From contig CAZMCQ010000005.1 in the NCBI GenBank assembly GCA_964565195.1, positions 30,697 to 94,696 on the forward strand: a stretch of DNA of 64,000 bases, written 5' to 3'. The position numbers and the translations under genes are program-made. Of the stretch, positions 6,619-53,510 are shown one piece after another. Source of the stretch: an uncultured Candidatus Saccharibacteria bacterium. GTDB taxonomy: Bacteria > Patescibacteriota > Doudnabacteria > UBA920 > 2-01-FULL-46-14. Each line of letters opens with the position of its first letter. The first letter of the stretch is position 1. The notes below the pieces were generated by a model. It made no database searches. It was not told the origin of the DNA and saw only the letters and a program-made list of their open reading frames with translations.

Positions 6619-6849
6619 TTATTTCATTCCGACTTTCTCTTCAAGTTTTTTGACGCGAACTTCGATGCGGTTGATATCGGCATAAAATGCTTTATCCAGC
6701 TTCGTCTCCACCAAACGCAGGCGATCATCAATTCCATCAACCTTTTTTTCCAGCCGTGCATGGTCATCTTTTGTGGCAGTGTTATCAAAACCAGCCTTGA
6801 TCATTTCGGCCAGATCATCCAGCGTTGTATTGTTATTTTTTTCAGCCAT
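6619..6849 (-). CDS. Small coiled-coil protein, paralog 1 (76 aa), function unknown
   Basis: GGAG lies 4 nt upstream of the ATG. The heptad-rich sequence ...LAEMIKAGFDNTATKDDHARLEKKVDGIDDRLRLVETKLDKAFYADINRIEV... is about 45% identical without gaps to the ORF at 28613..28855. The region is AT-rich. Confidence 0.6.
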   Translation of the reverse strand: MAEKNNNTTLDDLAEMIKAGFDNTATKDDHARLEKKVDGIDDRLRLVETKLDKAFYADINRIEVRVKKLEEKVGMK

Positions 6850-6880
6850 ATCTCCATATTAGAATGCTAAATAATTTTGG

Positions 6881-9013
6881 TCAAATTTCCGGCCATTTTT
6901 GGACCATTAGCAGATCATCCGAGAGATGCGACCAGATGTGTTCGGTCACGAACGGCATAATGGGGTGGAGGAGCTTGAGAACATTTATCAGGCAGTAGAG
7001 GAGAACCTTTTGCGTATTTTTATTCAATGCTTCGTCTTTGAGCTGCGGCTTTGATTCTTCAAGATAGATATCTGCGAAATTATGCCACGTGAATTGATAA
7101 ATTTCCTGGGCTGCCTCGTGGAGATTAAAATTTTCCAAAGCTGCGGTGACCTTTTGTTTTGTTGATTCCAAACCGGCGAGGATTTTTTTGTCGGCCTCGG
7201 TTTCTGCCTTTGGAATTTGGGATTTGATATTTGGATTTTGCAGGTTTGTTAATACAAACCTGCTGATGTTCCAGAGCTTGTTAGCAAAGTGCTTCATGCC
7301 TTTGATTTTATCCTCGGAGAGCGGGATGTCATTGCCCGCGGCGGTCGAAAAAATAAGCGCAAACCGCAAGGCGTCGGTGCCATAGGTATCGATGACGCCG
7401 AGCGGATCCACGACATTGCCGCGGCTTTTACTCATCTTTTGGCGGTCTTTATCGCGGACCAGGCCATGCAACAAAACTTTTTCAAAGGGAGGCTTGCCGG
7501 TTTTGTAATATGATAGCATGATCATCCGGGCAACCCAGAAAAACAGGATATCCCAGCCGGTTTCCATCACCTGTGTAGGATAAAAGATTTTAAAATCCTT
7601 TTCCGAATGCGCCATGAGCGTGGCATAGGGCCACTGGCCCGAGGAGAACCAGGTGTCAAAGGTATCCGGATCTTTTTCCAATTTTGACGATTTACACTTT
7701 GGACATTTATTGACTCTGTCTTGGAGATCCACGATTACCTCGCTGCAATTTTGGCAATATTTTACGGGAATCGGTATGCCCCACCAGATCTGGCGGGAGA
7801 TGGGCCAGTCGCGGATATTTTCCATCCAGTGCATGAAGATTTTTTCAAACCGCTTCGTGACGATTTGCACTTCTTTTTTCATGACTGCTTTTACCGCCCG
7901 GTCGCGCAAAGTCGTCATGCCCACAAACCACTGCGGGATGATTTGCGGCTCAATGATCGAGCCGCACTTGTAGCAAAGCTGGACATTGTGCTGGTATTTT
8001 TCATCAATTTTTTCGAGCAGTCCCTTCGCCTTGAGTTTTTCCACGATTTTCGGCCGCGCTTTGCTAATATGCAGGCCGGTGAATTCCCCGGCAATCGGCA
8101 GGAGCTTCCCTTTGCGGTCAATAATTTTTTCCATATCCAGATTGTGCCGCTGGGCGATTTCAAAATCTATCGGATCATGCGCCGGGGTGATGGTCATCAC
8201 GCCACTGCCGAATTCCATATCCACGGCCTTATCCTTGATTACCGTTGCGGTGATGGGTCCGTTGATCCATTCTAGCTCGATTTTTTGCCCATCCTTATAT
8301 TTTTTATATCGTTTATCATCAGGATGCATGACGACATATTTGTCACCGAATTTGGTTTCCGGACGGGCGGTAGCGATTGTGAATGGGCCATATTTCAGGT
8401 AATAAAAGGGCTCTTGGCGTTCCTCGTATTTGGTTTCGAGATCAGAAAGCGCGGTCTGATGGCGCGGACACCAGTTGCCGATACGGCCGGCGCGGTACAC
8501 GAGGCCATCGCGATACATCTGTTCAAAAGTTTCATAAATGATTTTAACAATTCGTTCGTCAAGCGTGAAGATGTTGCGGCTCCAGTCGCAGGATGAACCC
8601 AGGCGCTTGATGCCCTCTTCAGAAATGTGTTTATTCTGCTGAACAAAATCCCAAATTTCTTTGTAAAATTCTTCGCGCGTCATCGCAAAGCGCGAGCGAC
8701 CTTCTTTTTCCAGCTTTTTTTCGAAAACGACTTGCGTCTCAAAACCGGCATGATCTGTGCCGGGCAGCCACAGGGTTTTTCGGCCGCGCATGCGCTCAAA
8801 GCGGATCAAGATGTCCTGAATGGTGAGGCCCAAAGCGTGACCGACATGCAGCGGCGCATTGGCATTGGGCGGGGGCATTATTATAGTGTAGGGTTTGCCG
8901 GAAAGCTTGTCCGGATTAAAAAAACCCGAACGCTCCCAGCGCTGGTAGATTTTATTCTCGACTTCTTTGGGATTGTAGTTTTTCGGGAGATCTTTCATAA
9001 AAAACGTCGTCAT
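6881..9013 (-). CDS. valS: Valyl-tRNA synthetase (short form)
   Basis: Class I aaRS with PPPNANAPLHVGHALG (HIGH), KMSKSRGNVVDP (KMSKS) and the LWLPGTDHAGFETQ block typical of ValS. At 710 aa it is shorter than canonical ValS. Confidence 0.8.
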   Translation of the reverse strand: MTTFFMKDLPKNYNPKEVENKIYQRWERSGFFNPDKLSGKPYTIIMPPPNANAPLHVGHALGLTIQDILIRFERMRGRKTLWLPGTDHAGFETQVVFEKKLEKEGRSRFAMTREEFYKEIWDFVQQNKHISEEGIKRLGSSCDWSRNIFTLDERIVKIIYETFEQMYRDGLVYRAGRIGNWCPRHQTALSDLETKYEERQEPFYYLKYGPFTIATARPETKFGDKYVVMHPDDKRYKKYKDGQKIELEWINGPITATVIKDKAVDMEFGSGVMTITPAHDPIDFEIAQRHNLDMEKIIDRKGKLLPIAGEFTGLHISKARPKIVEKLKAKGLLEKIDEKYQHNVQLCYKCGSIIEPQIIPQWFVGMTTLRDRAVKAVMKKEVQIVTKRFEKIFMHWMENIRDWPISRQIWWGIPIPVKYCQNCSEVIVDLQDRVNKCPKCKSSKLEKDPDTFDTWFSSGQWPYATLMAHSEKDFKIFYPTQVMETGWDILFFWVARMIMLSYYKTGKPPFEKVLLHGLVRDKDRQKMSKSRGNVVDPLGVIDTYGTDALRFALIFSTAAGNDIPLSEDKIKGMKHFANKLWNISRFVLTNLQNPNIKSQIPKAETEADKKILAGLESTKQKVTAALENFNLHEAAQEIYQFTWHNFADIYLEESKPQLKDEALNKNTQKVLLYCLINVLKLLHPIMPFVTEHIWSHLSDDLLMVQKWPEI

Positions 9014-9090: not shown

Positions 9091-10191
9091 TTATCTCCAG
9101 GATTTTAATTCTAGATTTGGATTGGCCTTCACCTGGTCAAAAGTCCGAAGGTCGCGGTATCGATAATGATAACTCGCCGCGAGCGCGATCATGCCGGCGT
9201 TGTCAGTGGTGAGAGAAGAATTGGGAATTAGGAATTTGGAATTAGGGAAGAATTTTTTAATTGCAGCTTTCAGTTGATGCCGCAGTTTTTTATTGGCGGC
9301 CACGCCGCCGCCCAGGAGAATGGTTTTGACTTTGTATTCCCGCGCCGCGCGGATAGTCTTTGCGACCAATACATCGACAATGGCCCGCTCAAGCGAAGCG
9401 GCGATGTCGGCGCGCAGTTTGTCATCGCGAGGGCGGAGCCCGTGGCGATCTCGGGATTGCTTCCCCCGACCTTGCGTCGGGGTCGCAATGACATCATTAT
9501 ATAAATACAAAACCGCGGTCTTGAGGCCAGAAAAGGAAAAATCATAATTTTTTCGATCAAGCATCGGCCGCGGCAAATCAAATGCGCGCGGATTGCCTTG
9601 TTCCGCGAGCTTCGCAAGAGCGGGCCCGCCGGGATAAGGAAGCCCCAGCAGCTTGGCGACTTTGTCAAAACACTCGCCAGCCGCGTCATCCACTGTCTCG
9701 CCGATAATTTTGTATTGCCCGATCTTTTTGATTAGCACCAACATCGTATGCCCGCCGGAGACGATAAGGCCGAGGGCGGGAAAATAGGTTTTAGGAGATA
9801 GCTTATAGGTTATAGGAAGAGCGGACAGGAGATGGCCTTCCAAGTGGTTGATTGGAATGATTGGTTTGTTTAGCGCAAAGGCCAGGGCTTTGGCAGTATC
9901 CACGCCGATGCGAAGCGAGGTAACGAGGCCCGGGCCGATTGTGACAGCAATGGCATCAATTTCTCGGAGATGGACCCCCGCCTGCGCGAGGGCCTGCCTG
10001 ATTACAGGCAGGATTTTTAGGATATGGTTTCTGGCCGCGACTTCCGGCACAATGCCGCCAGTCTTGCGGTGGACCGCGATTTGCGAATAGATGATGTTGC
10101 TGCGGAGCTTCCCATCCGTCAAGACCGCGGCCGAGGTCTCATCCGCCGAGGTTTCAATGGCTAAGAGGGAAACTTTACGTTGTTTCTTCAT
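9091..10191 (-). CDS. tsaD: tRNA N6-adenosine threonylcarbamoyltransferase (Kae1/YgjD family)
   Basis: MKKQRKVSLLAIETSADETSAAVL... with the HLEGHLLSA metal-binding region. Start chosen at MKKQ (10189..10191) to avoid a 110-nt overlap with the upstream ABC gene. The C-terminal region contains an FPNSKFLIPNSS insertion encoded by the GGAATT repeat at 9221..9250. Confidence 0.85.
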   Translation of the reverse strand: MKKQRKVSLLAIETSADETSAAVLTDGKLRSNIIYSQIAVHRKTGGIVPEVAARNHILKILPVIRQALAQAGVHLREIDAIAVTIGPGLVTSLRIGVDTAKALAFALNKPIIPINHLEGHLLSALPITYKLSPKTYFPALGLIVSGGHTMLVLIKKIGQYKIIGETVDDAAGECFDKVAKLLGLPYPGGPALAKLAEQGNPRAFDLPRPMLDRKNYDFSFSGLKTAVLYLYNDVIATPTQGRGKQSRDRHGLRPRDDKLRADIAASLERAIVDVLVAKTIRAAREYKVKTILLGGGVAANKKLRHQLKAAIKKFFPNSKFLIPNSSLTTDNAGMIALAASYHYRYRDLRTFDQVKANPNLELKSWR

Positions 10192-18937: not shown

Positions 18938-19534
18938 ATGCCGAAAGCCCGGATTATTAAGGCCGAGAATTTGTCGCCCTCGGTCAAACTCTACACCTGC
19001 CAAGCCCTGTCCCGGGGTTTTTCATTTCTGCCCGGGCAGTTTTTCACTTTCCTGCCGGTGTTGCGCGCCTATTCGTTTTGCTCGCTGCCCGAGGAGCTGC
19101 CGCAGTTCGAGATCTGCGTGCGGGACGAGGGCCCGGGCCTTGGCGTGAATTTTTTAAAAAATAATCTGGGCAGGGCCGTTGCGGTAAGCGAGCCGCAGGG
19201 GTCCTTTGTATTGCCTGCCCAACAAACGGAATTGACCTTCATTGCCGCCGGCGTCGGCATCGCGCCGGTGCGACCTATGCTGCGCGCCTGGTTTGAGAAA
19301 TATCCGGACGCGAAAGCCACGCTGTATTATAAATCGCGGCTGGGGGAAAATTTGTTTGGGGAAGAATTCAAGGAGTTAGCCGACAAGCATCCCCTTTCCA
19401 TTTCTCGGGATTTTCCAGCGGCAAGAAATTCGCAGGTATTTGTAGTCGGTTCCCCGGAATTTGTAACGAGCAGTATTCGCAAGCTTGAGGAAATCGGCTA
19501 CAATAAAGCCGACATTAATTTCGACATATGGTAA
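18938..19534 (+). CDS. FAD/NAD(P)-binding oxidoreductase, ferredoxin-NADP reductase-like
   Basis: RAYS (RxYS FAD-binding motif) and AAGVGIAPVRPML (NAD-binding GxGxxP). It overlaps the trxB start by 7 nt. Confidence 0.5.
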   Translation: MPKARIIKAENLSPSVKLYTCQALSRGFSFLPGQFFTFLPVLRAYSFCSLPEELPQFEICVRDEGPGLGVNFLKNNLGRAVAVSEPQGSFVLPAQQTELTFIAAGVGIAPVRPMLRAWFEKYPDAKATLYYKSRLGENLFGEEFKELADKHPLSISRDFPAARNSQVFVVGSPEFVTSSIRKLEEIGYNKADINFDIW

Positions 19535-20448
19535 GAAAATTGATAATCATCGGGTCCGGGCCGGCGGGGCTGACAGCTGCGATTTATGCCGCGCGGGCGG
19601 AACTGAAACCGCTGCTTATCGCCGGCATGACTTACGGCGGGCAGCTCATGCTCACGACTGATGTGGGAAATTATCCTGGCTTCATTGAGGATATCAAAGG
19701 GCCGGAGCTTATTGACCGGATGCTGAAACAGGCCCAGCGCTTTGGCGCTGAAGTAGTATTTGATAACGCGATAAAGGTCGACTTTCAGAATAAGCCGTTC
19801 AAAGTCATGACTGACAAAGAAACTTATGAAGCAGAATCTGTTATTCTGGCCACTGGCGCGGATGCGAAATGGCTCGGCCTCGAAAGCGAGCAGCGGCTGC
19901 GGGGCAAGGGCGTTTCCTCCTGCGCGACCTGCGACGGATTTTTCTTTAAGGGCAAAGACGTGGTCGTGGTCGGCGGCGGGGACACGGCCATGGAGGACGC
20001 GACTTTTCTTACCAAATTTGCCAGCGAAGTGACGATCATTCACCGCCGCAACACTTTGCGGGCGTCGAAAATAATGCAAAAGCGCGCGATGGAAAACCCG
20101 AAGATAAAATTGATTTATGATACAGAAGTGGTGGAAGTCTTGGGCGAGAGTGAAGTAAGAGGGGTTAAACTTAAGAACGTAAGAACGAAAGAACTTAAGA
20201 ACCTGGAAGTCCAGGGATTGTTCGTGGCCATTGGCCACGTGCCGAACACGAAATTTTTACAAGGGTCAGGCGTGGAGATAGACCAAAAAGGTTATATCAA
20301 AATCTACGACGAAAGCCGGACCAACATTGAGGGCGTGTTTGTCTCGGGCGATGTGCACGATTTCCGCTACCGCCAGGCCGTTACTGCCGCCGGCGCGGGC
20401 TGTAAAGCGGCGATGGACGCGGAAAAGTATTTGGCTGAACAGAAATAG
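19528..20448 (+). CDS. trxB: Thioredoxin-disulfide reductase
   Basis: IIGSGPAGLTAAIYAAR (FAD GxGxxG), the redox-active CATCDG motif, VVGGGDTAMEDA (NADPH-binding). Confidence 0.93.
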   Translation: MVRKLIIIGSGPAGLTAAIYAARAELKPLLIAGMTYGGQLMLTTDVGNYPGFIEDIKGPELIDRMLKQAQRFGAEVVFDNAIKVDFQNKPFKVMTDKETYEAESVILATGADAKWLGLESEQRLRGKGVSSCATCDGFFFKGKDVVVVGGGDTAMEDATFLTKFASEVTIIHRRNTLRASKIMQKRAMENPKIKLIYDTEVVEVLGESEVRGVKLKNVRTKELKNLEVQGLFVAIGHVPNTKFLQGSGVEIDQKGYIKIYDESRTNIEGVFVSGDVHDFRYRQAVTAAGAGCKAAMDAEKYLAEQK

Positions 20449-22230: not shown

Positions 22231-22259
22231 AATAGCATCTGCAAATTACTAATTATTCT

Positions 22260-22278
22260 AATTTCTAAATTAGAAATT
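22260..22278. promoter_or_regulatory. 19-bp palindrome AATTTCTAA-a-TTAGAAATT in the rpsR-efp spacer
   Basis: Perfect 9-bp arms abutting the rpsR stop codon, inside an AT-rich repeat-like spacer (ttctaatttctaaattagaaattta). Confidence 0.4.
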
Positions 22279-22499
22279 TATCCATTCGGAACGAATGGTA
22301 AAAGGGCCATGTGCCGCGCGCGTTTCAGGGCACGGGTGACGAGCTTCTGGTGCTTCTGGCAGGAGCCGGTGCGCTTGCGGCCGAGAATTTTCGCGTGCGG
22401 CGACATGAAGCGCCGCAGCATTTGGGTATCTTTATAATCCACCCAGGAAATTTTATTTTCGCACAAAAAGCAGGATTTTGGCTGTTGGGGGATCGGCAT
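22278..22499 (-). CDS. rpsR: 30S ribosomal protein S18
   Basis: 73 aa. CFLCENKISWVDYKDTQMLRRFMSPHAKILGRKRTGSCQKHQKLVTRALKRAR is the S18 signature. Part of an S6-SSB-S18 operon. Confidence 0.93.
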   Translation of the reverse strand: MPIPQQPKSCFLCENKISWVDYKDTQMLRRFMSPHAKILGRKRTGSCQKHQKLVTRALKRARHMALLPFVPNG

Positions 22500-23015: not shown

Positions 23016-23062
23016 ATATTTTTAAATCCTAAATTCGAATATCGAAATTCGAAGCTTAATGA

Positions 23063-32908: not shown

Positions 32909-34762
32909 TTATATTTGTTCTTTTAAAATTTTCGCTTTTGCCTCGCCGATGACCTCTGCGATTTCGTCATGCGAGGTTTTTTTTATTTCCGCAGCCGAGC
33001 CGAATTTTTTTAAGAGTTTTTTCTTGAGCACTGGCCCAATCCCAGGGATCTCGTCGAGCCGCGAACGGACCATCGCGCGGCCGCGCCGCCCGCGGTGAAA
33101 GGTCGCGGCAAACCGGTGCGCCTCGTCGCGGAGGCGCTGCAGCAGATGCAGAACCAGAGAATTTTGCGGCAGACGAATCGGTTGTTTTTTTTGGGAAAGA
33201 TAAATTTCTTCGAGCCGTTTGGCCAAAGCGATCTTGGGAATTGGGAATTGGGAATTGGGAATTGCGGCTTCCGCCGCGTTGAGCTGTCCGCGGCCGCCGT
33301 CAATGATGATGAGGTCAGGGGTTGGCCAGGTTTTCGACCTCTCCCTTTCTCCCTCCCCATCACCTGGGGAGGGAACTCCTCTCTCCAGGAGGTGGAGAGA
33401 GGATGGGAGAGGGGTCGAGATATGCCCGAACCTTCTCTCCAACATCTCCCGCATCATCGCCACGTCATCTGGCGTTTCCTTGATATTGATTTTGAATTTT
33501 CGGTACTGCGATTTGTCTGGCCGGCCCTGCGTGAAAACTATCATTGAACCCACGGGATGGGTGCCCTGCATATTGGAGATATCAAAAGCTTCGATCCGCT
33601 CCGGCAATTTCGGAAGATTGAGAAGCCTTTTTAATTCCTCGAGAATTTTCGTCTCGTCTTCTTTTTCGAATGTGGCGCGTTCGCGTTCATAGTACGCCCG
33701 CGCGTTTTCGCCGGCCAGCTGCATCAGTTTGCCCTTGCGGCCGCGCACGGGCACAGCGATTTTAACTTTTGCTTTTCGCAATTTGCCGAGCGCGGCTTCC
33801 ACGATGTCGCTGTTTTCGATGCGGCCCGGCAAAAAAATATTTTTCGGGATGTCGGAACTGTCCTGATAATATTGCACGATGAAGCGTTCGAGGATTTCGC
33901 CCGCCGGCGCGCTATCATGCGTAAGCGTAAAATGCTCCTGGTTTAGGAGTTTCCCTTCGCGGACCAAGAATACATTGACCACTGCTTCAGTCGGAGCGGT
34001 GTATAGGCCGAGGTAGTCCTCATTTTCTTTTTTGGGCGAGATGACTTTTTGCCGTTCCCAGATCGAAAGCAGGGCGCGAAGCTTGTCGCGGAGCAGCGCC
34101 GCGTATTCAAAATTTTTCTCCCGCGCCGCCTGCTTCATATCGTGTTTTAGATCTGCGATTACCGCGCCTTGCTTATGTCTCAAAAAATCACCAATCTCTT
34201 TCATCTGGTGCCGGTATTGTGAAAGAGAAATTTCGCCGACGCAGACACCCGGGCAGCGTTTCAGATGATAGGCAAAGCAGGGCCTGCTGGTGATTTTTTT
34301 GTTCCGGCAAAGATGGAAAACATTTTCGATGAGTTTCAAAGTGCGGCGGACGGCGAGGCCGGAAGTGTAGGGGCCGAAGTATTTTGCTTGCGCCCGCGAT
34401 CCCAATTTACGAACCGGGTATATTTGGGGAATTGCAGAGGCGTAATCGATCTTGATGAACTGGTAGTTTTTATCGTCGCGCAGCAGGATGTTATAGCGCG
34501 GCTGGTACTGCTTGATGAGGTTGTTTTCGAGAATCAGACTTTCCACTTCGTTGGAGACCAGGAAATAGTCGAGGTCAGCGATCTCGGCAATCATCATTTC
34601 TGTGCGCGTCTCGCGGCCAGAGCTTTTGATGAAATAACTGCGCACGCGAGCGCGCAGATTTTTCGCCTTGCCGACATAAATAATTTCTCCGGCCGCATTT
34701 TTGTATAAATACACGCCGGGTTTGGCAGGAAGGGTGTTTAGCTTGCTTTCAAGCAACGACAT
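32909..34762 (-). CDS. uvrC: Excinuclease ABC subunit C
   Basis: N-terminal GIY-YIG ([30 protein letters not shown]), a UvrBC-interaction region and C-terminal RNase H-like/HhH domains. It contains in-frame insertions encoded by the (GGGAATT)4 repeat and two GC-rich hairpins. Confidence 0.93.
33236..33263. repeat. (GGGAATT)x4 perfect heptanucleotide tandem repeat inside the uvrC coding sequence
   Basis: tt-gggaatt-gggaatt-gggaatt-gggaatt-gcgg. It encodes [11 protein letters not shown] in UvrC. Related copies occur in tsaD (9221..9250) and the minor-pilin leader (52938..52992). Confidence 0.85.
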
Positions 34763-39967: not shown

Positions 39968-40074
39968 AATGTAAAATGCAAATATCAAAGTGCAAAATGA
40001 CAGTTGAAAATTAAAAATTTTGGATTTTACATTGTCATTTTGATTTTTGCATTTTGAATTTTAAATTTTTGAAA

Positions 40075-52159: not shown

Positions 52160-52912
52160 ATGGCAGTTTTCGCGGTCTTTGTCTTCGGCCTCATCATCGG
52201 CAGCTTTTTGAACGCTGTCATTTACAGACTCGCTTCGGGCGAGTCTGTGTTTGCTGCTCACTCGCGTTGTCCGCATTGTCGGCACGCCCTCGCCGCGCGG
52301 GATTTGATCCCGGTGTTGAGTTTTGCGCTCTTGCGAGGCCAATGTCGCTACTGCGGCAAAGGAATTTCCTGGCAGTATCCAATAGTTGAGCTCGCAACCG
52401 CCGCGGCATTCGTCTTGATTTATATCTCTATTCCCTATTCTCTATTCCCTATTCTTTTTAATTTTATTTTTGCCGCCCTCCTCATCCTCATCTTTGGCTA
52501 TGACCTCAAGCATTACCTCATCCTCGACAAAGTCGTGTTCCCGGCGGCGATTCTCACCCTCCTCTATCAGGGATATCTGGGGAATTTGGGAAATGCCCTC
52601 CTGGGCGCGGCATTGCTCGCTGGATTTTTCTATTTTTTGTACCTTGTCTCCCGCGGGCGATGGATCGGGGCCGGGGACGTGAAGCTCGGGATATTCTTGG
52701 GTGCGCTCGTGCCATGGCCGGTGACCGTGGCCCTGTTTTTCCTCGCTTATTTCATCGGCGCGGCTTTTGCCCTCATCCTTATCGCCCTGCGGAAAAAGAA
52801 AATGGCTGACCGCCTGCCCTTTGGCACTTTTTTAACGCTCGCCGCTTTTATTGCTATGCTGTGGGGAGAGGACATTGTTAACTGGTACTTCGTGTTGATA
52901 GGCATATCGTAA
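52160..52912 (+). CDS. pilD: Prepilin peptidase (A24 family) PilD
   Basis: N-terminal CPHCRH...C zinc motif, 8 TM helices, the conserved AGDVKL catalytic Asp region. Confidence 0.9.
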   Translation: MAVFAVFVFGLIIGSFLNAVIYRLASGESVFAAHSRCPHCRHALAARDLIPVLSFALLRGQCRYCGKGISWQYPIVELATAAAFVLIYISIPYSLFPILFNFIFAALLILIFGYDLKHYLILDKVVFPAAILTLLYQGYLGNLGNALLGAALLAGFFYFLYLVSRGRWIGAGDVKLGIFLGALVPWPVTVALFFLAYFIGAAFALILIALRKKKMADRLPFGTFLTLAAFIAMLWGEDIVNWYFVLIGIS

Positions 52913-52913
52913 A

Positions 52914-53020
52914 ATTTCTAATTTCTAATTTCTAATGAAATCCCAAATCCCAATTTCCAATTCCCAATCAAATCCCAAATCCCAATTTCCAAAATTGGTC
53001 ATTGGTCATTGGTCATTGGG
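52914..53020 (+). repeat. Three tandem-repeat tracts at the 5' end of the minor pilin gene: (ATTTCTA)3 abutting the ATG, a 32-nt tandem duplication, and (TTGGTCA)3
   Basis: 52914..52934 is (atttcta)x3. 52938..52992 holds two copies of aaatcccaaatcccaatttccaa separated by ttcccaatc. 52995..53015 is (ttggtca)x3. None of the unit lengths is a multiple of 3. Confidence 0.85.
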
Positions 53021-53510
53021 ATTTACGCTTATTGAGCTTCTGATCGTGATCTTCATCATTGGGCTACTCTCGAGCATTGTCACGGTCAATTTCAAAACCC
53101 AGCGTTCAAGCCAGGAGATCCAGATCGCGGGGCAGGATCTTATCTCCAACCTCCGCGAGATTCAAAATCTGATCCTCACTGGGAAACAGGTCGCGGGCGG
53201 CCAGGCCGCAACCGCTTATGAAATCACTTTTAGTATCGGCAGTCAGAACTACACCGTGGATTATTACCTTGGGACCGATAAAACGAGTTATAAAACCATT
53301 GCTTTGTCGCAGAACATTGCCATCGGCCAGCTGTACCGCAGCGCAGTGCCGGAAGCGCAGATGAAAATTCGCTTTGATGCACCATATGGCAAGATCACTG
53401 TGGATGGCCAAGCTAACCAGATTGGGGAAGTGCAACTTCGGCACGCTACGGAGGAGAGGGTCAGCGCAATAATCGTGGATGGCATCTCGGGTCGGATTGG
53501 GTTGAAATGA
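52935..53510 (+). CDS. Minor pilin / pseudopilin with an unusually long repeat-encoded leader
   Basis: MKSQIPISNSQSNPKSQFPKLVIGHWSLG|FTLIELLIVIFIIGLLSS. The mature N-terminus is class III pilin-like. The 29-aa leader is encoded entirely by repeat DNA. Confidence 0.75.
   Translation: MKSQIPISNSQSNPKSQFPKLVIGHWSLGFTLIELLIVIFIIGLLSSIVTVNFKTQRSSQEIQIAGQDLISNLREIQNLILTGKQVAGGQAATAYEITFSIGSQNYTVDYYLGTDKTSYKTIALSQNIAIGQLYRSAVPEAQMKIRFDAPYGKITVDGQANQIGEVQLRHATEERVSAIIVDGISGRIGLK

Follow-up and report, generated by a model that had tools for sequence, protein, structure and literature searches.

Heptanucleotide arrays translated in frame within uvrC and other genes of a Doudnabacteria-type bacterium: probable slippage microsatellites filtered by selection

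Introduction

Heptameric simple sequence repeats (SSRs) are over-represented in many bacteria, and polymerase slippage has been named as their proposed origin (Mrazek et al. 2007, cited by Rehm et al. 2015, PMC4692102). The described cases are the short tandemly repeated repetitive (STRR) heptamers of heterocystous cyanobacteria and the GGGAATC repeats of Xanthomonas and GGGGA(C/T)T repeats of Nostoc (PMC4692102). The latter repeats are 89-93% intergenic, lie within ~50 bp of the ends of open reading frames (ORFs) and have no known function (PMC4692102). Here we analyse a perfect heptamer array that lies inside uvrC, together with similar arrays in other genes, in a stretch of 64,000 nucleotides from an uncultured Candidatus Saccharibacteria bacterium placed among the Doudnabacteria by GTDB (assembly GCA_964565195.1, contig CAZMCQ010000005.1, positions 30,697 to 94,696); this whole stretch is called the window, and all coordinates are those of the window.

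To our knowledge, heptameric SSRs, known in bacteria since 1990, are still without explanation and have been treated as intergenic. Two other systems offer themselves for comparison. In Haemophilus influenzae, 7-bp repeats upstream of hmw1A and hmw2A reportedly act as contingency loci, i.e., phase-variable SSRs, and the Rickettsia palindromic elements, which Ogata et al. reportedly described in 2000, are selfish in-frame insertions in protein genes. The arrays of the window are probably of a different nature, namely slippage-driven heptanucleotide microsatellites that have been filtered by selection for the reading frame and for loop tolerance. The uvrC tract is best explained as one instance of a lineage-wide habit of Doudnabacteria-type genomes of the candidate phyla radiation (CPR), and as a (nearly) neutral outcome of mutation bias, neither a mobile insertion nor a dedicated switch. 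The observations behind this view are that the period is specific, that array sites are shared between orthologs while the unit turns over, that net insertion is absent, and that only one tract is a true expansion.

Results

The uvrC gene (32909..34762, minus strand) encodes a protein of 617 amino acids (aa), whose closest non-self homologs (58-45% identity; excinuclease ABC subunit C) belong to Candidatus Doudnabacteria and to other Patescibacteria, and whose matches in the PDB (2nrt, 1yd6) are UvrC domains of Thermotoga maritima and Bacillus stearothermophilus. Tandem Repeats Finder (TRF) reports the tract at 33234-33264 (minus strand) as a period-7 array, TTGGGAA x4.4 with 100% matches; the exact run of 31 nt reads TTGGGAATTGGGAATTGGGAATTGGGAATTG on the plus strand and corresponds to (AATTCCC)x4.4 in the sense of the gene and to (GGGAATT)x4 on the plus strand. 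The perfect, translated repeat that an initial annotation, made from the letters alone, had placed here was thus recovered. The array starts at codon 500 of 617 and is translated in frame as UvrC residues 501-510, within the gene, neither in an intergenic region nor within ~50 bp of the end of the ORF. In the AlphaFold2 (AF2) model, whose mean predicted local distance difference test score (pLDDT) is 81 overall and ~86 at the tract, these residues form a loop of the RNase H-like endonuclease domain that connects helix 491-500 with strand 510-513. The last units end on the codons ATT CCC, which specify the conserved Ile-Pro that precedes the UvrC strand IxLAKR. The same annotation had considered the peptide as inserted, which the alignments contradict: among 120 homologs the tract takes up as many columns as the usual VLKxYNLQIPIIGLAKR (net change of 0 aa), and it aligns without any gap with T. 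maritima 2nrt (GQVNAAIEALKEIGKDCPVVGLAK). An assembly artefact was also considered for the 31-nt tract and rejected, as the ORF is intact and like arrays recur in independent NCBI, ENA, JGI and Logan assemblies.

A true insertion of UvrC relative to T. maritima is found elsewhere, at residues 447-478 (33329-33424), and is distinct from the heptamer tract. It consists of nested palindromes, with perfect 10- and 11-bp hairpins within a 24-nt outer stem (predicted RNA fold of -62.7 kcal/mol, z = -4.75), is translated in frame, is disordered in the AF2 model and resembles a Rickettsia palindromic element.

A degenerate copy, also announced in the initial annotation as translated, was confirmed within tsaD (9091..10191, minus strand; 366 aa, ATG at 10191; Pfam PF00814 at 3e-95, PDB 4ydu at 4.6e-81). 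At this site, called T3 (9216..9248, minus strand; TRF and sequence), the imperfect array reads CCTAATT CCAAATT CCTAATT CCCAATT in the sense direction and encodes TsaD residues ~315-326 (FPNSKFLIPNSS), read as FPNSKFLIPNS and including the invariant Pro323; as in uvrC, the array ends on the conserved Ile-Pro codons ATT CCC (IP323). The T3 tract adds only 2 aa to the length of Escherichia coli TsaD (4ydu), which again speaks against an insertion, and is modeled as loop-strand-loop with pLDDT 87-96. A second array, T1 (9784..9816, minus strand; TRF), has CCTATAA-type sense units, encodes residues 126-137 (PITYKLSPKTYF), adds 4 aa relative to E. coli TsaD and forms a loop in the AF2 model. The annotation had expected that alignment with orthologs would reveal the peptides as lineage-specific, and indeed neither E. 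coli TsaD nor T. maritima UvrC has them, but CPR orthologs have heptamer arrays at these places; as the latter orthologs come from related and not from unrelated bacteria, they tell only partly against the insertions that it had proposed.

It should also be pointed out that TsaD residues ~231-252 (~9436-9501) contain 19 aa that E. coli TsaD lacks (IATPTQGRGKQSRDRHGLRPRD), corresponding to an in-frame nested palindrome with the hairpin CCCCGAC...GTCGGGG and with pLDDT <50; the fillers of orthologs at this site are very diverse and comprise 0-45 residues.

CPR orthologs that are 40-70% identical carry heptamer arrays at the same positions, built from unrelated units. At the UvrC site, three relatives have CAAATTC CAAATTC AAAATTC CAGATTC (L121), AAAATTA CAAATTA CAAATTC CAAATTC (L123) and two copies of AAATTCCATATTCT (L125), and in a fourth (L124) the array is absent. 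At T1 of TsaD, the CCTATAA-type units of the window are replaced by four perfect copies of AAATTCC in L207, by AAAATCC-type units in L208, by a weak array in L209 and by GCAGTTN x5 in L210. At T3, where the window has CCNAATT x4, the same four loci have ACTNAAT-type units, CTTCCGA x5, TTCCACA/TTCTAAA and a perfect CCAAATA x5, respectively. When each period-7 array of 84 tsaD genes was placed by alignment on the window protein, 34 arrays fell into five clusters, at residues ~25-30, 123-133, 196-206, 244-253 and 313-321. What is conserved across relatives is the period and the site, and not the sequence of the unit, which argues against a sequence-defined element, a conserved G-quadruplex (G4) or a protein-binding site. 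Likewise, units within the window vary by site (AATTCCC, CCTATAA, CTATTCC, ATTGGTC, AATTTCT, ATTTTGN), so that the notion of one repeat family does not apply. Nor does the proposal that the repeat seeds itself into new DNA, since the arrays occupy native loop residues and orthologs 45-70% identical carry other units at the same positions. In L126 and in several TsaD and ValRS (valyl-tRNA synthetase) orthologs, palindromic fillers of the GEG/GRG type take the place of heptamer arrays at the same loops.

The excess of tandem heptamers in coding and intergenic DNA, as initially perceived, is real and specific for the period. Five period-7 arrays were counted in the window and none in its shuffled versions, the other tested periods (4-13) giving 0-1; two period-14 arrays are period-7 arrays detected a second time. 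Apart from the uvrC tract, TRF lists eight or more rows of period 7. The dimer GGGAATTGGGAATT, with up to two mismatches, matches 11 times against 0.79 expected, at three loci that share GGRAWTT-type units, and the heptamer GGGAATT taken singly shows no enrichment (18 observed, 16.1 expected). In 225.6 kb of related Doudnabacteria-type loci, 31 period-7 arrays were found versus 0-5 for each other period (4-12), 25 of these 31 being inside ORFs of 150 codons or more. In an independent set of tsaD loci totalling 270 kb, 33 period-7 arrays compare with at most 12 for other periods, and four of the five related Doudnabacteria-type uvrC loci that were examined first are enriched in period-7 arrays. 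At the protein level, counts of 7-aa tandems per bin reveal clear hot spots in TsaD and a weak signal in UvrC, the lag-8 and lag-9 controls being noisy owing to conserved motifs, and no weight is placed on these counts. A bias toward a C-rich sense strand was not significant across all period-7 arrays of Doudnabacteria loci (17/25).

These arrays are not genome-specific, in contrast to what had initially been suggested: period-7 arrays are enriched in relatives, and a scan for GGGAWTT x3, using one genome per species (hit loci L001-L120), returned more than 120 loci from many phyla. Most belong to filamentous cyanobacteria, and others to Xanthomonas, Chloroflexota, Planctomycetota, Acidobacteriota, Bacteroidota and one Moraniibacteria genome. 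About half of the GGGAWTT arrays lie within an open frame of at least 150 codons, in cyanobacteria, Acidobacteriota, Planctomycetota and other phyla. In-frame arrays of AAWTCCC are therefore not unique to this genome, and the peptides that they encode seem to be widespread beyond CPR too.

Several comparisons indicate how the units change. Arrays are identical between units at the DNA level, synonymous positions included. At T3, identity between residues i and i+7 is 2.07 within proteins versus 1.49 between proteins, a difference that none of 2000 permutations reached, and a scan of lags gives 0.207 for a period of 7 aa versus at most 0.095 at other lags. The variable residues of T3 co-vary inside each protein (IPHS/IPHS, LPKT/IPKT, PTSD/PTSD, PNTKY/PNTKY). 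In the sister strains L125 and L126, whose uvrC DNA is ~91% identical, three small sites are wholly different: at the tract site, one strain has a heptamer array where its sister has the palindromic filler TCTCCCCCTGCGGGGGATCTCCCGAAGGGAGA, another loop consists of (CTCCNAN)x5 in one strain versus (CGCCAAT)x3.5 in the other, and the third difference is a 21-nt indel (ADLPTGE). Among UvrC alleles that are 92-98% identical (P0023, P0026, P0127, P0030), all four combinations of two loop cassettes occur, which suggests recombination between alleles of co-existing strains. Within three UvrC clusters of 90% identity the tracts are identical, and the sole exception, in a fourth cluster, is a palindromic filler and not a unit-number variant.

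The leader of a type IV pilin-like protein is a true expansion, alone among the tracts. The gene (52935..53510, plus strand; Pfam PF07963, with the N-methylation motif at residues 29-49) is taken to start with the ATG at 52935, which is backed by the conservation of MKSQ in two orthologs; an alternative TTG start giving a 9-aa leader was rejected because MKSQ is kept in these orthologs. In the closest ortholog (P0267, 74% identity) the leader is MKSQQG, followed by FTLIEL, whereas the window protein has MKSQ, 23 heptamer-coded residues and then G|FTLIEL, i.e., 23 aa more than P0267. The motif that the initial annotation saw in this leader is present as an array of ~8 units of the types AAATCCC, AATTCCC and AATTTCC (52938..52993, plus strand, encoding KSQIPISNSQSNPKSQFPK). 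This C-rich array directly adjoins the native ATG AAA TCC CAA, which includes the Lys-Ser-Gln codons (seed AAATCCCAA). It is followed by a perfect (ATTGGTC)x3.7 (52994..53019, plus strand; TRF), whose translation, LVIGHWSL, immediately precedes the G|FTLIEL cleavage site. The spacer between pilD and the pilin gene holds a perfect (AATTTCT)x3.4 (52913..52936, plus strand; TRF); these 22 nt of (AATTTCT)n are missing from the ortholog L211, in which the pilD stop overlaps the pilin ATG. The ATTGGTC array is partly complementary to the C-rich array upstream, and the predicted RNA fold of 52905-53040 has -29.1 kcal/mol (z = -4.8). In a more distant ortholog of the pilin, C-rich arrays precede G-rich ones, and in L212 convergent C-rich and G-rich arrays lie near each other. 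The pilin 5′ region, which gained its three arrays after the divergence from P0267, is thus a candidate region in which phase variation or variation in expression could affect the minor pilin, a CPR surface structure.

The pilD-pilin junction (52905-53040) thus contains three unlike heptamer arrays in succession, with a long hairpin predicted just 3′ of the start codon. Two other pilin genes located upstream (51124.., 51692..) have ordinary short leaders.

Further arrays were found in two other genes. The class I aminoacyl-tRNA synthetase at 6881..9013 (minus strand; Pfam) was assigned as ValRS by its synteny with tsaD and by similarity (tblastn, alignment), and is truncated at its C-terminus. 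Its imperfect array (7206..7240, minus strand; CAAATCC-type in the sense direction) encodes NPNIKSQIPK in a loop after the KLWNISRFVL motif; the loop is shared with three ValRS orthologs by alignment, and its length is identical to that of L209. The window ValRS ends with ...LMVQKWPEI* (stop at 6881-6900), at the point where L207 and L209 have a heptamer array (PISKSKIKNQKSKIG and PVLEVRSLKLEVG), and is without ~165 C-terminal residues of these two proteins, including a coiled coil. Downstream of valS, at 6620-6850 on the minus strand, a separate small coiled-coil ORF (MAEKNNN...EEKVGMK) is found. The end of valS may reflect a truncation or a gene split at the array site. The prepilin peptidase gene pilD (52160..52912, plus strand; Pfam A24_N_bact and Peptidase_A24) contains about four units of CTATTCC/CTATTCT (52424..52457, plus strand; TRF), which encode ISIPYSLFPILF.

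Among intergenic regions, the hrcA-grpE spacer contains about seven imperfect units of ATTTTGN (40016..40069, plus strand; TRF), and the relative L123 likewise has a period-7 array in this spacer. The weakest member is a short, imperfect (AAATTCG)x3.3 in the rpsF-ssb spacer (23031..23053, no strand assigned; TRF, 75% matches). Arrays that had escaped the initial annotation are those of tsaD at 9784-9816, valS, pilD, ATTGGTC x3.7 and the hrcA-grpE and rpsF-ssb spacers. Its statement that AT-rich heptamers fill spacers is correct for pilD-pilin but not for rpsR-efp, where 22243-22279 contains perfect 9-bp palindromes (AATTTCTAA/TTAGAAATT) and no family of direct repeats, hence no tandem array. 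The palindrome may be a terminator or an operator. The word AATTTCT is common to the rpsR-efp palindromes and to the pilD-pilin array. Finally, a period-8 array (AACGTAAG x4.4, 85% matches, 20168-20202), read as KLKNVRTKELKNLE in a thioredoxin-reductase-like ORF (19528..20448), is the sole non-heptamer array of such kind in the window.

Discussion

As the uvrC and tsaD arrays are flush with native Ile-Pro codons and the pilin array with ATG AAA TCC CAA, we infer that these native codons served as seeds, i.e., that arrays nucleated on ATT CCC in UvrC and TsaD (IP323) and on the first codons of the pilin gene. Such seeds would have been extended and homogenised by replication slippage or by unequal exchange among units. 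Selection would then retain the products that preserve the frame, either net multiples of three (for instance three units, equal to 21 nt and 7 aa) or compensated steps, and would also demand a tolerable peptide in the loop. As 7 has no common factor with 3, it takes three units to encode one peptide of seven residues (such as IPNSQFP, KSQIPNP or PNTKYQI), and the coding of peptides by heptamers explains their recurrence without any function at the protein level.

Several points weigh against so simple a scheme. Copy-number polymorphism of an array was not directly observed, the metagenome scan having contained no copy of this uvrC locus, and the DNA evidence from relatives comes from about a dozen loci. 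Single 7-nt steps break the frame, and the constant length of UvrC and of T3 would require 21-nt or compensated events. The density of arrays in tsaD is not predicted by simple neutral slippage: over 80 metagenome tsaD loci (L127-L206) and the window tsaD, 26 arrays lie in 89 kb of tsaD and 7 in 181 kb of flanks (0.29 vs 0.039 per kb), a 7.5-fold difference (p = 9e-8) that is subject to mild ascertainment, the query alignment including the array peptides at T1 and T3. According to the structural model, T3 covers an ordered strand with an invariant proline, so that protein-level constraint contributes there. Finally, GGGAWTT arrays within ORFs have the C-rich strand as sense in nearly all cases (48:8, p = 5e-8), which shows that selection on the peptide or avoidance of G4, and not mutation alone, acts on them.

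A stronger proposal is put forward tentatively, and we hold it to be clearly less likely than neutral slippage under selection. [quoted passage not shown] Under this proposal TsaD would have five such sites, and UvrC and ValRS two or more apiece, which would have persisted through 40-70% protein divergence while the unit was repeatedly replaced by concerted evolution. If it is true, coding microsatellites would be a stable architecture of essential proteins and not transient mutational noise.

Selection at the protein level could in principle produce the same pattern, if the 7-residue peptides, of the form [IL]P-x-[ST]-x-[FY]-x, were a functional or structural motif and the DNA period its by-product. 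T3 offers some encouragement, as its pattern LPxSxFxIPxSxL is conserved in ~100 CPR orthologs without variation in length, holds P323 and the ordered strand, and gives an already high cross-protein i/i+7 identity (1.49 of 10). Yet the identity between units extends to synonymous positions, so that arrays follow the heptamer and not codon usage, and variable residues co-vary within each protein (H/H, K/K, TSD/TSD, NTKY/NTKY). Intergenic spacers hold period-7 arrays too, and a given loop accepts unrelated peptides (AVSSWRL, NSKFQIP and TYKLSPK at T1) or, in other strains, palindromic fillers. We therefore regard this explanation as improbable, beyond the contribution of constraint at T3.

A functional G4 on the template strand of uvrC, where (GGGAATT)x4 would form a G4 or i-motif that modulates transcription or replication, is similarly unlikely. 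The tract provides exactly four uninterrupted G3 runs with 4-nt loops, its predicted fold reaches -15.0 kcal/mol against -5.4 kcal/mol without G4 (RNA parameters), and G-rich strands are kept off the sense strand in ORFs, as counted above. A preference for four units and G4 formation in vitro have moreover been described for the closely related GGGAATC (Rehm et al., PMC4692102). However, the units of relatives at this very site (CAAATTC, CAAATTA) do not retain G-richness, most arrays in these genomes are unable to form a G4 (CCTATAA, CTATTCC, ATTGGTC, CCAAATA, GCAGTTA), and the tsaD copy has broken G-tracts (AGGAATT, TGGAATT). The copy numbers of GGGAWTT arrays decay monotonically (63, 31 and 13 arrays at three, four and five units) with no peak at four, and the known G4 repeats, unlike the tract, are mainly intergenic (89-93%; PMC4692102).

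Still less probable is a phase-variable mutator switch, in which gain or loss of a 7-nt unit would toggle nucleotide excision repair and give rise to a mutator subpopulation. That a one-unit slip would frameshift uvrC, as proposed in the initial annotation, is borne out by simulation: ±1 unit shifts the frame after residue ~507, giving products of 581 and 600 residues in which the last ~75-95 residues are scrambled, including the LAKR-EEI and RDEAHRF motifs and the helix-hairpin-helix domain, whereas ±3 units keep the frame. The perfection of the array is compatible with recent slippage, and the pilin gene of the window carries three arrays at the 5′ end, where phase variation would classically be expected. 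The switch itself, on the other hand, found no support. None of the 120 UvrC homologs is truncated at the tract, short proteins ending elsewhere or at contig ends, and the clusters of 90% identity contain no unit-number variants. A search for tract variants of 1-5 units with exact 14-nt flanks gave 0 matches in JGI metagenome contigs, a collection that does not include this genome and is thus uninformative on polymorphism. Comparable arrays occur in tsaD and valS, normally indispensable genes whose inactivation should kill the cell, so that an array by itself is no sign of a switch. The arrays of relatives at the same uvrC site are degenerate and would slip poorly, the tract has only ~4 units, and uvrC, tsaD, valS and pilD are housekeeping genes, the gene class of adaptive switches being represented by the pilin only.

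A small mobile or self-seeding element, i.e., a defined heptamer cassette copied to new sites in the manner of the Rickettsia palindromic elements or of small dispersed repeats of cyanobacteria, is hardly credible: GGRAWTT-type units do recur at three loci, both the leader and the spacer of the pilin gene are genuine gains with respect to the ortholog and in-frame palindromic fillers do occur in the same genes, yet there is no net insertion in uvrC or tsaD (0, +2 and +4 aa), for which the idea is largely refuted, the unit changes from site to site and, at one site, from ortholog to ortholog, conserved termini and flanking duplications are absent, and the pilin array is contiguous with its native seed.

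Comparison With Known Systems

In this ultra-small CPR bacterium, in-frame arrays are found in genes for excision repair, for the synthesis of the tRNA modification N6-threonylcarbamoyladenosine (t6A), for ValRS and for the pilus. They provide a natural system for asking how far a mutation bias, slippage in a 7-nt register, can write protein sequence, how selection for frame and fold filters the outcome, and how microsatellites persist in genes that do not tolerate frameshifts. CPR peptides of the IPNSKFQ, KSQIPNP and PNTKYQI types should accordingly be read as products of DNA repeats, and not as motifs, domain insertions or horizontal elements. Our literature search found nothing that links heptamer or simple sequence repeats to CPR or Patescibacteria, and we did not find described, as a joint set, the CPR setting, the predominance of coding sites and array sites that divergent orthologs have in common while the unit is replaced.

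The closest relatives of these arrays are the STRR1-3 sequences of Calothrix and Nostoc, which have in common with them the head-to-tail 7-nt units, the many loci and the several different units per genome. The ATTGGTC unit of the pilin leader (52994-53019) is presumably the same as that of cyanobacterial STRR2, TTGGTCA (Mazel et al. 1990). As in bacterial heptanucleotide SSRs in general, the period of 7 is singled out among longer SSR periods. The described STRR-like cases are overwhelmingly intergenic, whereas here 25/31 arrays lie in long ORFs, housekeeping genes included; they also differ in that the host is a CPR bacterium and that sites are common to orthologs only 40-70% identical, with turnover of the unit. 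Among the GGGAATC and GGGGAYT repeats with G4 potential, GGGAATC is one base away from GGGAATT, four units are the minimum for a G4, and a G4 is predicted here as well. Convergent C-rich and G-rich arrays lie close together in Xanthomonas, as they do here in the pilin gene and in L212, and in both cases the G-rich strand is avoided on the coding strand. Unlike these repeats, the uvrC tract is located in the middle of a gene, and its G-tracts are not conserved at the orthologous site.

With contingency loci, the arrays share a unit that is not a multiple of three and that lies in or next to a gene, and the pilin locus fits the usual gene class; they differ from such loci in that the tracts are short (3-5 units) and the host genes mostly housekeeping or essential, for which being switched off brings no adaptive gain. 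The Rickettsia palindromic elements resemble what we observe in so far as they yield DNA-derived extra peptides in surface loops, and the palindromic fillers of UvrC (33329-33424) and TsaD (~9436-9501) are similar to them. The heptamer arrays themselves, in contrast, are non-palindromic, lack a conserved sequence and in most cases bring no net insertion.

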